Of a stretch of DNA of 64,000 nt, positions 1,492-61,600 are shown in pieces. The first letter of the stretch is position 1; the number at the start of each line of letters is the position of its first letter. The notes under the pieces are model-generated. The model had not been told where the DNA came from. It saw only the letters and a program-made list of their open reading frames with translations, and ran no database searches. Made by a program: the position numbers and the translations under genes. The DNA is taken from the NCBI GenBank assembly GCA_964016885.1, contig OZ024740.1, forward strand, positions 140,368,001 to 140,432,000, written 5' to 3'. Source of the stretch: Eledone cirrhosa (taxonomy: Eukaryota).

Positions 1492-34218
<32,727 letters not shown>

Positions 34219-38525: not shown

Positions 38526-38774
38526 TTATACACGCTGAGAAACCGAGATTTTTCCATTTCTGTCAACAACTTACTGGCGAAACAACCCTTTGGATTTGGA
38601 CGTGTGTTATATAGTTATAGAGGTATTTATTTACGCTTTAATTTATATTTTTAATTATCGTGTCTATAGTCTGCCTTTCATAGGTTATAGATTCCATACA
38701 CTGGTGGTTTTTTCCCTGTTTTATTGATAGCGCACTGTATATGTCTCTCTAGTGTGTTACATTTTTCAACATAT

Positions 38775-38945
38775 TGTTATGAAGTTCATCTATCCTCAAT
38801 ATAACTTTATTTTATTGCATATCTTTCTTTTCTTACAAATATTATTGTTATATTTCTTCAAGACTAATTACTGTTTTTATATTCTAGATATTGAATAAAA
38901 GCTTGGAATTGGAGCTTTAGTTTTGCAATATTAGAACGCACAACA
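38775..38945 (+). repeat. 5' LTR
   Basis: Direct repeat of 41457-41627. Confidence 0.97.
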
Positions 38946-41456
38946 ATTTTATTCAATATCTACTCAGATAATTCGTAGTTTTGTTTAGCATCCCATACAT
39001 ACATGTATCCAATGGTTTGTAATCGTTATGTTTTACCTGCACACAGGAAAAATAGGTAGATATCCAATTGTTGTCGCTGTTAAATGACAAATATTATTTA
39101 CTCTGTGAGCCTTTGTCATCGTTGTACCCTTTTAATACTATGTACGTTAGTTAAGAACGATGAATACATTTATTCTCCCTCTCTCTCTCTGTTAATCTAC
39201 CTATCTATCAATCCAGCGCTTTTTCTCTATTTCGGTATACATGTATATATGTGTGTGAGTGTATTTGAATTTCTTCTCTAACGAAGTCTATAAATTTCAA
39301 TATGATATTTGTTACAACTGTTTCGTTCCGAGACTAGACGTTTTGTGGTATTCGTTTCCACCCTTACTCTACCTTCAAAGCTTGCTACATTCTCAATAAC
39401 AATGGCTCAATTAAAAATTCCACATCCAACATTCCCAAATGACCCCCACATCCGAGCAATGGCGATGGTGGCGGAAGTGTTTTGTGGATTCCCTACTCAT
39501 AAACGGCATAGTAGAGGACAACCATAAATTGACATACCTTCGTTCACAAGCTGGGGCCGACCTATTTAGTTTACTCGAATCTGCAGAAAACTTCAACGAA
39601 GCACTAATCACCCTGGATACTCAATTCTTAGCCCCCAGTCGTATACTCTATGCCAGACATCAACTCCTAACATGCCACCAAAAGCAAGAAGAAACCATCC
39701 GAGAGTTTATTAAAAGACTCAACCTTTTAGTGGAAAAATGTAACTGTAAAGCCATCACAACTAAAGACCACAGAGATATGTTGATCCTGGATTCACTAGT
39801 AGCAGGAGTCCAATCAGACGCTATACGAGCACGTCTCCTAGAGCTGGACGATACTCAAGCAAACCTAAAAGACTGCATAGCAATGGCAAATGCAATAGAA
39901 CTATCCAGTGATTTTACTAAATCATTCAACCTAGACGTCTCTCTGAATTCATCAACACTGTCAACTACATCCTCTCAAGAACCTACCGTAGCAGCTACAA
40001 AATCAAAACAACCTCTTCTGAAATACTTGAAAAATGCTAATTCCCAAAGTGAATTTAAATGCTTTTTTTTGTGGACTTTCTAGGCATCCTAGAAATAAAT
40101 GCCCAGCTAGAAAAGACAATCAACTGTGGAGCGAGAAGCTATGGCTATTATTGAAGCTGTACGGAGATGGTCGCAATACGTGAAGTGTTTTTATACGATT
40201 ATACGGACTGACCAAAAATCAGTAGCCTTCATTTTCTCGAGTAATAAATCACGAATCAAAAATGATAAAATATCTCGCTGGCGTTTAGAACTATCAGAGC
40301 ATCAATTTGACATTGACTACAAACCCGGCTACCTCAACACCCAAGCCGATTGTCTTTCAAGAATCGCTGCAGCTATATGGCCACCCTGTGATTTAAAAGT
40401 ATTCCACGACCAACTAGCACACCCAGGAGTAACTAGATTTTACGATTATATCCGACGCCATAACCTGCCCTTTTCCGTAGACGAAATCCGCGACGTCGTC
40501 AAAAACTGCGTATCATGTTTGGAGTGCAAGCCAAAATTCTTCAAGCCTCCATCTGCTAAACTCAAAATCTTCAAAAGCAGGAAACATATACTTATTGACT
40601 GCAGTAGACGAATTCAGCAGATTCCCTTTTGCTTTCGGTATGCGTGACATCACCTCAAACACTGTCATTAACTGTCTCAAAAAAATCTTCTCAATATTCG
40701 GAGCTCCCTCATTCATACACTCCGATCGAGGAACTCAGTTTCTCTCCAAAGAATTCGATCATTTCTGCTTGTCCAATGGTATATCCCACACGCGCACTTC
40801 GCCGTACCATCCACAAGGAAATGGCCAAAACGAGCGCTACAACGGAGTCCTCTGGAAAGGAATTCAATGCATAATTAACTCGCGCAAACTTAAAGAAACT
40901 AAGTGGGAAGATATCATACCAGAAGTTCTTGCCTCGCAACGATCACTTCTCTGTACAGCGACTAATGAGACACCCCATAACCGCATATTTAGATTCGATC
41001 GAAAGGGTTCCTTAGGATTTTCCCTACCAGATTGGCTTAGAGTTGGAAACGACGCCTATATTAGAAACTTTATTCGTACAAAGAACGACCCATTAGTGAA
41101 TAAAGTTATTATCGAACAGATGGTGAATGCTAATTTCGCGGTTGTCAGATATCAAAATGGAAGATCTAGTACAGTCTCAACAGCAGACCTCTCCCCTGGC
41201 CCAATTAATTGTCAAAATAATGACAATCAATCCATCCAAGAAAACAGTTCGATTAGCAGTCCTGCTGATATGCCGAGACCACTTAACATCGACCACAGTA
41301 ACGATCTACTCTTAGATGAAACCGTGATTGATTTAAATCCCGTGGCAAATAGCACTAGCATCCTACCGCAAGTTCCTGTTGACCCCGTGAGACGAAGCAA
41401 TCGTATACGCGTAGCCCCCAAGCGCTATATTGAAGAACAATAAAATCGGCGAAGAA

Positions 41457-41627
41457 TGTTATGAAGTTCATCTATCCTCAATATAACTTTGTTTTATTGC
41501 ATATCTTTCTTTTCTTACAAATATTATTGTTATATTTCTTCAAGACTAATTACTGTTTTTATATTCTAGATATTGAATAAAAGCTTGGAATTGGAGCTTT
41601 AGTTTTGCAATATTAGAACGCACAACA
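41457..41627 (+). repeat. 3' LTR
   Basis: Direct repeat of 38775-38945. Confidence 0.97.
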
Positions 41628-41842
41628 CATATTGTATTTTAAAGAGCTCAGGATTTCTTCTCCTTTGAGCGCATTATTTACAGGGAATGGCGAGGGTCTA
41701 TGGCTCCGTTAATTTATCGTGATATTTCGCTCCTTATAGCAGTCTTTCCTATCCCTCTGTTTGGTTGAGCACACTTCTCTGAGTGGTTTTGGGCTGCCCT
41801 TTCTAGCAGCTCGTCCCTCAGAGGCCACTGGTTCAATGCACA

Positions 41843-52690: not shown

Positions 52691-55600
52691 GAAAAAAGTC
52701 ATTTGCAATCACATTTAAGGTCACTCTTTTAGATATAGAAGATAGGCATTACATTTTAATGATTTTAATTTAAAGAGAATCACGCTATATGATGCAACAC
52801 AATAACACACCACACCACACTAACCTACACTACACCAAACGAGATTATACCATATCTTGGTAAATTTATGATAGGTTTCCATGTTATAACTACACCAAAC
52901 TAAACCATACCAAACTACACCAAACCAAACCATACCAAGTTACACCATACTACATCACACCAAGCTATTGATCTTGGTGTGAAACATTTTCTTCCCGTTT
53001 CCTTTTTTTTTTTGTGTGTGTGTGTGCTTACCACCCAATCTGACATTCAAGGTGCTCCCAATTGACTATTTTTTTTCCACTTATCAATAATTATGACATG
53101 GAAACCTGTCGAAAATGACTATCTTTGTAGAAACTTCACCAAACCACACCATACTACATCACACCAAGCTATTGATTTTGGTGTGACAAATTTTCATCCG
53201 GCATTTTTTTTTTTTTTTTTTGTGCTTACCACACAATTTTACATAAATGGAGCTCGCAAATTACTATTTTATGCACATATTATCAATGGTTATGACATGA
53301 AAACCTGATGAAAATGACTAGCTTTGTAGAAAAAAGAGGGAGGATGTGGGTGGAAATACCATTTACAAAGCTAGTCATTTTTTATTGCAGCGGAAGTCAT
53401 ATTTTTTGTTAATATGCTAAAAGCATAGTCCACTGCGAGCATCTTGGAAGTTGATAGCACATTTCATCACATCACATTTCATCACACCACATCACATTTC
53501 ATCACACCACATTACATTTCACCACACCACAGCACATTTCATCACATCACATCACATCACATGCCATCACACCACATGCTACCACACTACATCCCACCAC
53601 ACTCCACTACACCATATCCCCCACCCTACATTGAACCACACTCCACTACACCACACCACTGTCCACTACACTAAACCACACTACACTACACTACACCACT
53701 GTCCACTACACTAAACCACACTACACCACACTACACTACACACCACCACACTACACCACACCACTGTCCACTACACTACACCACACCACTGTCCACTACA
53801 CTACACCACACTCCACCACACCACACCACACTACACTACACCACACCACACCACTGTCTATTCGACTGTTTTCTATTTCGTAGTATGTCCAGTTACAGTA
53901 AGAGAAAGAAAGTTATTTCAAAGGATCTGAGTAAGTAAACACTTCATTGACCATCATTTTAAGCAGAATCTCAGTGTAGTTTTAAATTGACCTTTTCATA
54001 TGATTACACCTCAGTCTTAACTTAATCACCTGTAGATGGATGCTACATGTAATGTTAAAATTAGTTAAACACTGTTTCCCCCTTCTCATCACATGTGGAT
54101 GCTACATGTGTATTGTTAACATTAATCTAACGTTGTGTCCCCCCGTCCCACCTCACCATATCATACCACACCACATCACACCATGTTGTACCACATCAGA
54201 CCACATAACACCATGCTATACCATATATATATATATATATATATGAGCTCCCCACTCGTTATATTAACTGTATCTCCTCGGTGTTTCGTGAAAGTCTGAG
54301 AGATCAGCTATATATTTGTTTACAATTTTTTTTTATATTTAGATGGAAAAGAAGAAAAAGACGACGAAGCAGACGACTAAAATGAAAATGACAACAAAGA
54401 CAAAGAAGACACGGGAAACGAAGATGACGAAAAGAAGAAAGTATGATCTCAAATCAGTCTAAATCTAATGATTTATAGATATGATCTTAGTTCAATCTTA
54501 ACCTAATGACCTGTAGATACGATCTATTTAGGTTTAACTTAAACATTCAAAGATATTTGTATATAATTTTGTTGATGTTTGACATTGTTTTTTAGTTATG
54601 AAATAGCTTATAAGCTACATTATAGGATCACAGTGCATGAGCACACTGCTCTTTAAATTAACTTTATCTCCTCAGCACTTTGTAAAGTCTGAGAGATAGG
54701 CAACATATATGTTTTACATTCTTTTTTTTTTTTGGTATTTAGATTAGATGGCAGAGAAGTCAAAGGCACAGAAGAAGTCAAAGGCACAGAAGCAGTCAAA
54801 GGCACAGAAGCAGTCAAAGGCACAGAAGCAGTCAAAGGCACAGAAGAAATCAAAGGCACAGAAGCAGTCAAAGGCACAGAAGCAGTCAAAGGCACAGAAG
54901 CAGTCAAAGGCACAGAAGAAAACAAAGACACAGAAGAAGACAAAGAAAATGAACAAGAAGAACAATTATTATTACTATTATTATTGTTATTATTATTTGT
55001 ATTATTATAATCAAACTAAGCCACACTACATCAACCTATACCAAACCACAACACACTACATCAATCTATACCATACCACACCACACTGACAAACATTATA
55101 CCATACCACATTATCCAACACCACACTATGAAACACTGTACGACCTCACATCAGACCATTCTATGAAACAATATACCATACTACACTATACAACAATAGA
55201 CAACACCACACAAGACTATGAAACACTATACTTTACCACACTATATCACACCACTCAAGTTAGAGAGGATCAACTTTTTTCCTGGAAAGTAGAAAACCTA
55301 ACTTTAAGCTAAAACCGAACTTTAAAAATAACACTTACCCTAACACTTGCACTCACACATGCTCTAACAGTGAACTTAGCGCTAACATGAAAACTAACAC
55401 AAACTAACCTGAACACTAAGACTAAAACTGAAACTAACACTAACCTAAACAGCAGCACTAAAACTAACAATACCGTAAACACTAATACAAACACTAACAC
55501 TAACCTGAACACTTACACTAAAACTCACATTAGCACAAACATTAGCCTGAACACTAGCACTAAAACTAACACTACCATAAACACTAACATTGACCTGAGC

Positions 55601-58600: not shown

Positions 58601-61600
58601 TGATGCGGACGCCACAGGAAAGGTTAATGGAAACGCTAATGCTAACGGAAAACGCTGACGCAGACGTTACGGAAACGCTGACGTAGAAGCTAATGTAAAC
58701 GCTGACACAGACACTAACGTAAACGCTGACACAGACGCTAACGTAAACACTGACGTTAACTGAAACGCTGACGCTGATGTAAATACAGACGCTGACACAG
58801 ACACGGTCGGAAACGCTGACGTAGAAGCTAACGGAAACACTGACATAGATGCTAACGGAAACGCTGACGTAGAAGCTAGAGTACACACTGACACAGACGC
58901 TAACGGAAATGCTGACAAAGACGTTAAAGGAAACGCTGTCGCTAACGCTAATGTGAATGCTGATGCAAATGCTGACGCAAATGCTAACCCCCACACAAAT
59001 GCAAACGCTGATGCTAACACTGACTCAAACACTAATGCAAATGCTGACGTGCACGCTGATGCAAACCTGACACTGACGCAAGTGCTGATGCAGACGCTAA
59101 TGATAATGCTGACTCAGAAGCTGATGTAGACACAGGCACTGAAACAAACACTAATGCTAACACTAATGTTGACTCAGACGCTAAGGGAAATGCTGACACA
59201 ATCACTATCACCAATGCAGACGCTGACGCAAATGCTGACATAGATGCTGACACTTACGTAAACACTAACGCAGATGCTAACACCAGTCTACATAGACACC
59301 AACACAAAAGCTTATGCAAATGCTAACGCTGATGCAGACAGTAACGCAAACAGTAACGCAAACAGTAACTGTAAGAGTAACAGTAACACTAACAGTGACA
59401 GTAATGCTAACAGTAACACCGTCACTAACAATAAACTTACCCTAACACTAACCCTAAATCTAACATTAACCCAGAGAAAAAAGTCATTTGCAATCACATT
59501 TAAGGTCACTCTTTTAGATATAGAAGATAGGCATTACATTTTAATGATTTTAATTTAAAGAGAATCACGCTATATGATGCAACACAATAACACACCACAC
59601 CACACTAACCTACACTACACCAAACGAGATTATACCATATCTTGGTAAATTTATGATAGGTTTCCATGTTATAACTACACCAAACTAAACCATACCAAAC
59701 TACACCAAACCAAACCATACCAAGTTACACCATACTACATCACACCAAGCTATTGATCTTGGTGTGAAACATTTTCTTCCCGTTTCCTTTTTTTTTTTGT
59801 GTGTGTGTGTGCTTACCACCCAATCTGACATTCAAGGTGCTCCCAATTGACTATTTTTTTTCCACTTATCAATAATTATGACATGGAAACCTGTCGAAAA
59901 TGACTATCTTTGTAGAAACTTCACCAAACCACACCATACTACATCACACCAAGCTATTGATTTTGGTGTGACAAATTTTCATCCGGCATTTTTTTTTTTT
60001 TTTTTTGTGCTTACCACACAATTTTACATAAATGGAGCTCGCAAATTACTATTTTATGCACATATTATCAATGGTTATGACATGAAAACCTGATGAAAAT
60101 GACTAGCTTTGTAGAAAAAAGAGGGAGGATGTGGGTGGAAATACCATTTACAAAGCTAGTCATTTTTTATTGCAGCGGAAGTCATATTTTTTGTTAATAT
60201 GCTAAAAGCATAGTCCACTGCGAGCATCTTGGAAGTTGATAGCACATTTCATCACATCACATTTCATCACACCACATCACATTTCATCACACCACATTAC
60301 ATTTCACCACACCACAGCACATTTCATCACATCACATCACATCACATGCCATCACACCACATGCTACCACACTACATCCCACCACACTCCACTACACCAT
60401 ATCCCCCACCCTACATTGAACCACACTCCACTACACCACACCACTGTCCACTACACTAAACCACACTACACTACACTACACCACTGTCCACTACACTAAA
60501 CCACACTACACCACACTACACTACACACCACCACACTACACCACACCACTGTCCACTACACTACACCACACCACTGTCCACTACACTACACCACACTCCA
60601 CCACACCACACCACACTACACTACACCACACCACACCACTGTCTATTCGACTGTTTTCTATTTCGTAGTATGTCCAGTTACAGTAAGAGAAAGAAAGTTA
60701 TTTCAAAGGATCTGAGTAAGTAAACACTTCATTGACCATCATTTTAAGCAGAATCTCAGTGTAGTTTTAAATTGACCTTTTCATATGATTACACCTCAGT
60801 CTTAACTTAATCACCTGTAGATGGATGCTACATGTAATGTTAAAATTAGTTAAACACTGTTTCCCCCTTCTCATCACATGTGGATGCTACATGTGTATTG
60901 TTAACATTAATCTAACGTTGTGTCCCCCCGTCCCACCTCACCATATCATACCACACCACATCACACCATGTTGTACCACATCAGACCACATAACACCATG
61001 CTATACCATATATATATATATATATATATGAGCTCCCCACTCGTTATATTAACTGTATCTCCTCGGTGTTTCGTGAAAGTCTGAGAGATCAGCTATATAT
61101 TTGTTTACAATTTTTTTTTATATTTAGATGGAAAAGAAGAAAAAGACGACGAAGCAGACGACTAAAATGAAAATGACAACAAAGACAAAGAAGACACGGG
61201 AAACGAAGATGACGAAAAGAAGAAAGTATGATCTCAAATCAGTCTAAATCTAATGATTTATAGATATGATCTTAGTTCAATCTTAACCTAATGACCTGTA
61301 GATACGATCTATTTAGGTTTAACTTAAACATTCAAAGATATTTGTATATAATTTTGTTGATGTTTGACATTGTTTTTTAGTTATGAAATAGCTTATAAGC
61401 TACATTATAGGATCACAGTGCATGAGCACACTGCTCTTTAAATTAACTTTATCTCCTCAGCACTTTGTAAAGTCTGAGAGATAGGCAACATATATGTTTT
61501 ACATTCTTTTTTTTTTTTGGTATTTAGATTAGATGGCAGAGAAGTCAAAGGCACAGAAGAAGTCAAAGGCACAGAAGCAGTCAAAGGCACAGAAGCAGTC

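Follow-up and report, generated by a model that had tools for sequence, protein, structure and literature searches.

Antisense host exons at the primer-binding site suggest self-priming by LTR-derived RNA in a Gypsy family without a chromodomain in Eledone cirrhosa

The window, a stretch of 64,000 nucleotides of Eledone cirrhosa DNA, contains a deleted member of a young Ty3/Gypsy family that has no chromodomain. Comparison of the copies and relatives of this element indicates that the family very probably self-primes reverse transcription with a segment of its own LTR RNA, ATATTGAATAAAA, and not with a tRNA. It appears quite probable that this LTR-derived RNA primer is retained and copied, and that chimeric RNAs in which a host exon is joined to the LTR leave antisense exons after the primer-binding site (PBS). 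The inserts found at this position would probably arise by read-through of the primer, and the window copy is itself likely to be such a product.

Results

Structure of the element

The features of the window copy are given in Table 1. The sequence around it (window 38700-38774 and from 41628 onward) is a very high-copy host repeat that served as the insertion site, with a depth in public contigs of 30,000-55,000 as against 9-22 for the unique 336-nt insert that follows the PBS. Full-length copies of the family measure ~4.07 kb, and one sister copy (L089) retains a single 1199-aa frame in which gag, zinc knuckle, protease, RT, RNase H and integrase follow one another in that order (Pfam). The best PDB match of the family protein is Ty3 (E 1e-54), and the TG...CA LTR pairs and the 5-bp target duplications of the window copy and its sister copies are those of a Ty3/Gypsy LTR element. 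The absence of a chromodomain, stated in the preliminary description, was borne out in the frame of L089 as well as in P0022, P0028 and P0033, none of which gave a Pfam chromodomain match at E<=0.1.

Table 1 Positions of the element and its parts in the window
Feature	Position	Strand	Remark
Target-site duplication, left, CATAT	38770-38774	+	Identical 5-mer at 41628-41632
5′ LTR, 171 nt, TG...CA	38775-38945	+	170/171 identity with 3′ LTR
Branch-point-like GACTAAT, pyrimidine tract and TAG splice acceptor	38862-38887	+	From sequence; AG at 38886-38887
Predicted 13-nt self-primer segment	38888-38900	+	First base is the acceptor exon start; complements family PBS 13/13
AATAAA, inside predicted primer segment	38894-38899	+	
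Single spacer base A, LTR end to PBS	38946	+	A in 11 of 12 families (among the matches listed)
Family PBS, 13 nt, non-tRNA type	38947-38959	+	
Foreign insert, 336 nt	38960-39295	-	CTA first on + strand; missing from canonical copies
Re-entry into element via 8-nt partial PBS TTCAATAT	39296-39303	+	Joint 38951-39296; 8 letters fit either side
gag remnant, broken	39402-40083	+	Retrotrans_gag and PNMA matches, under curated cut-offs
Deletion junction, ~1.5 kb, 10-nt microhomology	40109-40118	+	Protease, RT and most of RNase H gone
RNase H C-terminus, integrase zinc finger and core, broken	40111-41443	+	Without chromodomain
Short purine-rich, PPT-like tract ahead of 3′ LTR	41448-41456	+	From sequence; putative role
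3′ LTR	41457-41627	+	170/171 identity with 5′ LTR
Target-site duplication, right, CATAT	41628-41632	+	

Elsewhere in the window, a broken Penelope-like element with RT (PF00078) followed by GIY-YIG occupies 30912-33525 (+), and a different perfect 18-nt inverted repeat, its arms ~55 nt apart, occurs twice, at 53311-53381 and 60096-60166. ARAGORN detected no tRNA genes within the 64-kb window.

Pairing of the LTR with the primer-binding site

The preliminary description had reported that no tRNA-type TGG follows the 5′ LTR and that the 16 nt at 38947-38962 are exactly reverse-complementary to 38885-38900. Both observations were confirmed in the window copy, where the LTR is followed by ATTTT. 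When the LTR with 25 nt of downstream sequence was shuffled, the 16-nt match was equalled in 1 of 20,000 shuffles. Only 13 of the 16 nt (38947-38959 against 38888-38900) constitute the family site, because the CTA at 38960-38962 opens the foreign insert; the 21 canonical copies pair over these 13 nt only, so that a 16-nt primer is not a family trait. The origin of the window copy as a read-through product would explain the apparent longer match. The proposed transcription start at 38885 is likewise not supported as a family trait, since the canonical pairing starts at 38888, an exon start behind a splice acceptor.

The AATAAA reported for this region is present inside the predicted primer segment. 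The TATA-like TTATAT is also present, at 38848-38853 and again at 38877-38882, but it carries little weight as evidence because the LTR is so AT-rich. Concealment of the poly(A) signal in the 5′ LTR alone, which had been suggested as a second role of the duplex, was not seen in a fold test, as the hexamer was predicted to be paired in both contexts (unpaired 0.04-0.18 in the 5′ leader and 0.11-0.55 in the 3′ LTR context) and the test did not discriminate between them.

Junctions behind the 5′ LTR

A survey of the 3.0-Gb genome with a 25-nt LTR motif (<=1 mismatch) returned 66 matches. Thirty 5′ junctions were classified, comprising 21 canonical junctions, one without a PBS and eight aberrant events that include the window copy. 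The aberrant count derives from eight loci, two of which are a tandem duplicate of one event, together with L094, which was added separately as its LTR is split by a repeat insertion. In canonical copies the LTR is followed by A and the 13-nt complement and then by GAT. In the aberrant events the first base after the PBS is C in 8/8 and the first two are CT in 7/8, leading into foreign DNA, and such aberrant junctions make up about a quarter of copies (8/30). Antisense U3 sequence extending more than 4 nt beyond the PBS was found in none of the eight. Several aberrant copies run on into inverted element pieces, and several contain deletions and inversions.

In the window copy the PBS is followed by CTA and the 336 nt of foreign DNA, and the element is re-entered via TTCAATAT. 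Forms with and without this insert are both present in public contigs, where the insert is unbranched and at single-copy depth.

Two further kinds of altered LTR were noted. In L196, L197, L200 and L096 the 5′ LTR is cut at 117, 129-131 or 166 and fused to internal sequence, with the PBS gone, and the LTR end of L094 (C4:247011341-247011672) is interrupted by a high-copy host repeat of ~125 nt, accompanied by an 18-nt duplication.

Host exons in the inserts

Sources were sought for seven of the eight events (all but L198) and were found for six. Five of these six traced inserts meet the PBS exactly at a GT donor of the host, read on the opposite strand, against a background of 105 GT[AG][AG]GT sites among 117,114 positions of six host loci. 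The insert of L089 comprises two C5 pieces that lie 124 kb apart and are 99% identical, along with about 85 nt without a traced source. On the opposite strand these pieces are exons with the borders TAG/GACTG...AATAA/GTAAGT and CAG/GCTG...AAAG/GTAGGT (slashes denote joints), and the last donor forms the joint to the PBS. Because the exons are 124 kb apart and have GT/AG borders, this insert must have passed through spliced RNA. The exons (G000:C5:91188957-91189078 and 91313675-91313777, +; L173, L174) belong to a host transcript that appears to be non-coding and has an intron of 124 kb; the capture alone revealed it.

The insert of L091 derives from C2:26.279 Mb (99%, joint TAAG/GTAAGT), where a solo LTR of the same family follows on the same strand, 4.6 kb downstream of the donor. 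That of L090 was traced to C2:281.9 Mb at 92% identity only (joint AAAG/GTAGGT). Two of the five donor-joined sources are repeat families, namely those of L094 (best copy 97%, joint TAG/GTAAGT) and of L093 (GGG/GTAAGT in four of five exact-match copies). A same-strand LTR near the source is missing in this assembly for four of the five donor-joined sources, so that these call for the assumption either of trans-splicing or of a parent copy that is polymorphic or has been lost. Three of the donors lie at C5 (91.31 Mb, +), C2 (281.90 Mb, -) and C4 (367.79 Mb, -).

In the sixth traced event, L092, a host repeat follows the PBS and the joint has no donor. At this locus (C4:263178747-263178934) LTR, PBS and CTAG lead directly into the host repeat, with no internal region within ~16 kb, an arrangement that looks like the one-ended, PBS-directed insertions reported for integrase-deficient Tf1. 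No source of the 336-nt insert of the window copy was found in the assembly or in public contigs; this insert is likely to have been copied, in antisense, from a host RNA with ...TAG at its end.

A splice-acceptor motif in the LTR

The LTR contains, in this order, GACTAAT, a pyrimidine tract and TTCTAG/ATATTGAATAAAA, with the exon start coinciding with base 1 of the 13-nt segment. From the donor-joined inserts of the sister copies we infer that this acceptor is used in splicing. A host exon spliced to it is predicted to give exon/AUAUUGAAUAAAA, and the reverse complement of this junction is found at the PBS, contiguous with the sense LTR. The antisense PBS strand has no AG at the junction, so that only the sense LTR acceptor could have made the joint.

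Other origins of the joint were considered and set aside. Antisense splicing of host RNA into the PBS was rejected for want of an AG at that place, and an intron internal to the LTR was rejected as the L085 LTR has no GT[AG]AG or AGGT[AG] donor. Splicing of gag mRNA into the acceptor of the 3′ LTR found no strong donor near the end of gag, where a single GCA/GTAAGC-like site occurs at element position 1062. Start sites 1-3 nt upstream, or copying of the cap, as the origin of the C, CT or CTA were rejected for the five donor-joined copies and may apply to the window copy and L092; the CTA of the window copy could come from such a start because its insert has no source.

Complementarity in related families

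A metagenome scan yielded 74 loci from the best 80 of 600, of which 22 had an LTR pair. Four of them (L097, L101, L109 and L115) showed no complement at the position tested and were left out, as their LTR end is cut by the contig end. The remaining 18 loci were grouped by inspection into 10 families, which together with the family of the window element and a second family of the same genome gave 12; in L104 and L106 the LTR end was set by the motif CAACA/ATTT, which is biased towards the result, and L139 is contig-terminal too.

Among the matches listed, the PBS matched its own LTR best in 12/12 families, with 12-18 matches as against 4-13 in cross matches, and for each of these 12 none of 1000 shuffles was as good. 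The number of independent cases is below 12 because the two families of this genome resemble each other, as do L100 and L106. In related elements the PBS letters differ from family to family and match the respective LTR, the pairing itself being conserved. The reading of the element as self-priming in the preliminary description is well supported by this complementarity in 12/12 families (among the matches listed) and by the spliced RNAs fossilised as primer copies.

Within the same set of listed matches, the PBS starts with ATTT in 11 of the 12 families and with TTTT in one, and an AG lies exactly 9 nt ahead of the segment end in nine of the 12. In these nine the complement runs over and past the AG, which fits an initiator with a primer of at least 11 nt, and the occurrence of AAG or GAG in four families counts against a universal acceptor. 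The family of the window element is the one in which the complement ends exactly at the AG. In 11 of the 12 families among the matches listed (L100, L104, L106, L127, L133, L137, L142, L153, L160, family B and that of the window element), the predicted primer has AAA as its last three bases and R-C-Y or GCC (ACCT, GCCT, GCTT, GCTA, GCCA) directly behind it, possibly a cleavage-site motif.

The second family of the same genome (L213, L214, L220, L222 and L223) shares ~40% protein identity with that of the window element, and four of its five loci with an LTR pair are canonical (12 loci examined). Its U3 is pyrimidine-rich and reads TTAG/ATTGAATAAAA, and its PBS includes one further base, a C, that covers the G of the AG. 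In L223, ~200 foreign nt follow a mutated PBS and begin with A, not C.

A Tf1-type pretzel arm, a duplex with sequence downstream of the PBS, was no better than shuffles in 9/9 families (81-465 of 500 shuffles equally stable), and a stem directly behind the primer gave a marginal, non-significant result, being equalled in 102 of 2000 shuffles.

Discussion

The junctions can be accounted for by a primer that is kept and copied. RNA with the 13-nt segment would pair with the PBS and be cut directly after ...AAUAAAA, presumably by the RNase H of the RT in a Tf1-like manner. The primer would be retained on the minus strand, and plus-strand strong-stop synthesis would copy it and so regenerate the PBS. 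If transcripts of a host gene have been spliced to the LTR acceptor of a copy lying in an intron, their host part would form a long 5′ extension of the primer, through which RT would copy host exons in antisense; such inserts would open with CT because this is the complement of the exon-end AG. Template switching or microhomology would then return RT to the element, and integrase would insert the product with a normal target duplication. Inverted element pieces, as seen in aberrant copies, are expected if RT hops between RNA templates before rejoining. An antisense exon at the PBS that is contiguous with the sense LTR has the arrangement of an RNA primer on minus-strand DNA copied by the plus strand, and the chimeric copies imply that the primer need not be 5′-terminal in its RNA.

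As a tentative extension, the element may be an exon trap that owes much of its RNA to host promoters and to splicing into its LTR acceptor, with the acceptor, not a start site, setting the primer start and antisense exons being captured routinely at a fixed position. The PBS complement would then stop at the splice junction as the sole invariant part of primers with variable 5′ exons.

A doubtful alternative is that the primer is short, capped and Tf1-like, and that the PBS tail of completed plus-strand strong-stop DNA anneals by mistake to R in a separate host-exon/LTR RNA, which is then copied, so that the chimera reflects a wrong acceptor in the second transfer. This would yield the identical sequence, and the sole parent found near a source is now a solo LTR without a PBS, although it may once have been full-length. 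However, a wrong acceptor should more often be the 3′ R of ordinary genomic RNA, which would leave a PBS with long antisense U3, the class found in 0/8 events. A very improbable origin of the extensions is post-integration hairpin snap-back or end-joining of the DNA, with the inserts as patches left by templated repair: a DNA hairpin is possible at the site, several aberrant copies have deletions or inversions, and L092, with neither donor nor downstream element, may have arisen in this way, but repair cannot give intron-free exons from 124 kb apart or place five of six joints at splice donors, and is contradicted for those five copies. Priming by a tRNA fragment or other small host RNA, with the LTR/PBS duplex mainly hiding the 5′ poly(A) signal, fits the paired segment that ends at or in an AATAAA-like hexamer in most families (among the matches listed) and is equally improbable, given a PBS that lacks TGG, letters that differ and each fit their own LTR, antisense exons left unexplained and a fold test without 5′-specific occlusion.

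Capture through a retained LTR-derived primer would share with retroviral and LTR transduction that host RNA from chimeric spliced transcripts is taken up during reverse transcription, but would differ in its outcome. Under the standard scheme, ordinary minus-strand transduction would place sense host exons upstream of R, whereas here the capture is antisense, fixed directly 3′ of the PBS, and runs from the splice junction on, as expected from primer read-through and not from minus-strand switching. A modified tRNA base halts plus-strand synthesis, and tRNA-primed elements should therefore lack this route of exon capture.

Self-priming has been shown experimentally for Tf1-type chromoviruses and is elsewhere predicted from base pairing alone. 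The genome studied here appears to record the primers themselves, as spliced host-exon/LTR RNAs copied at the position of the PBS. Such fossils have no easy explanation if the PBS is not primed, or at least templated, by LTR-derived RNA, and they would move a widespread animal Gypsy lineage from predicted self-priming towards sequence-level evidence of it. Donor-joined antisense inserts after the PBS could serve as a test for any self-primed family. The name Ronin for a self-primed lineage was not met among the papers listed.

The available text of the sources places self-priming in Tf1/sushi, Tcn1 and TAR copia elements (PMC3601003, PMC6934838, PMC3286476, PMC11042837, PMC5341516, PMC6317226, PMC10085805, PMC8220671, PMC6238403). 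In the accessible portions of the openly available articles searched, a body of text that excludes supplements, subscription journals and the databases Repbase and GyDB, we found no description of self-priming in a non-chromoviral animal Gypsy lineage, nor, within the same scope, of exon capture through the primer. In the chromoviral Tf1, Tf2, Tj1 and Tosmo, as here, a PBS just past the 5′ LTR pairs with R and there is no tRNA site, and a copy of the primer is kept on the cDNA, as is proposed for the present family, according to the text available (PMC10085805, PMC11042837); in about 50% of Tf1 particle cDNA, the 3′ end is described there as still carrying the PBS copy in single-stranded form (PMC11042837). 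Unlike the Tf1/sushi chromoviruses, the family of the window element has neither a chromodomain nor support for a pretzel arm downstream of the PBS, and its predicted primer segment, which begins directly behind a splice-acceptor motif, shares sequence with the poly(A) hexamer. For the plant Tcn1 chromoviruses and the TAR copia elements Houba and Osr-1, self-priming is likewise predicted from LTR/PBS pairing; these belong to other lineages and hosts, and exon-capture fossils were not met for them in the accessible part of that source (PMC6317226).

Among animal Gypsy elements, the Mag lineage (A/B/C clades, SURL) is likewise about 4 kb long with a single ORF. Mosquito Mag elements have tRNA-Leu/Ser/Arg sites in the available text (PMC3286476), whereas the family of the window element has no tRNA-Leu/Ser-type PBS. 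Compared by LTR size and end motifs only, the window LTR resembles Mag C as given in the accessible text, with 171 nt against a mean of 174 and ends of TGTTATGA...GCACAACA against TGTNATRT...AYANAACA (PMC3601003). Relatives of the family occur in insects, an isopod, a ray, a nematode and an acoel, at ~45-57% RT/RH identity.
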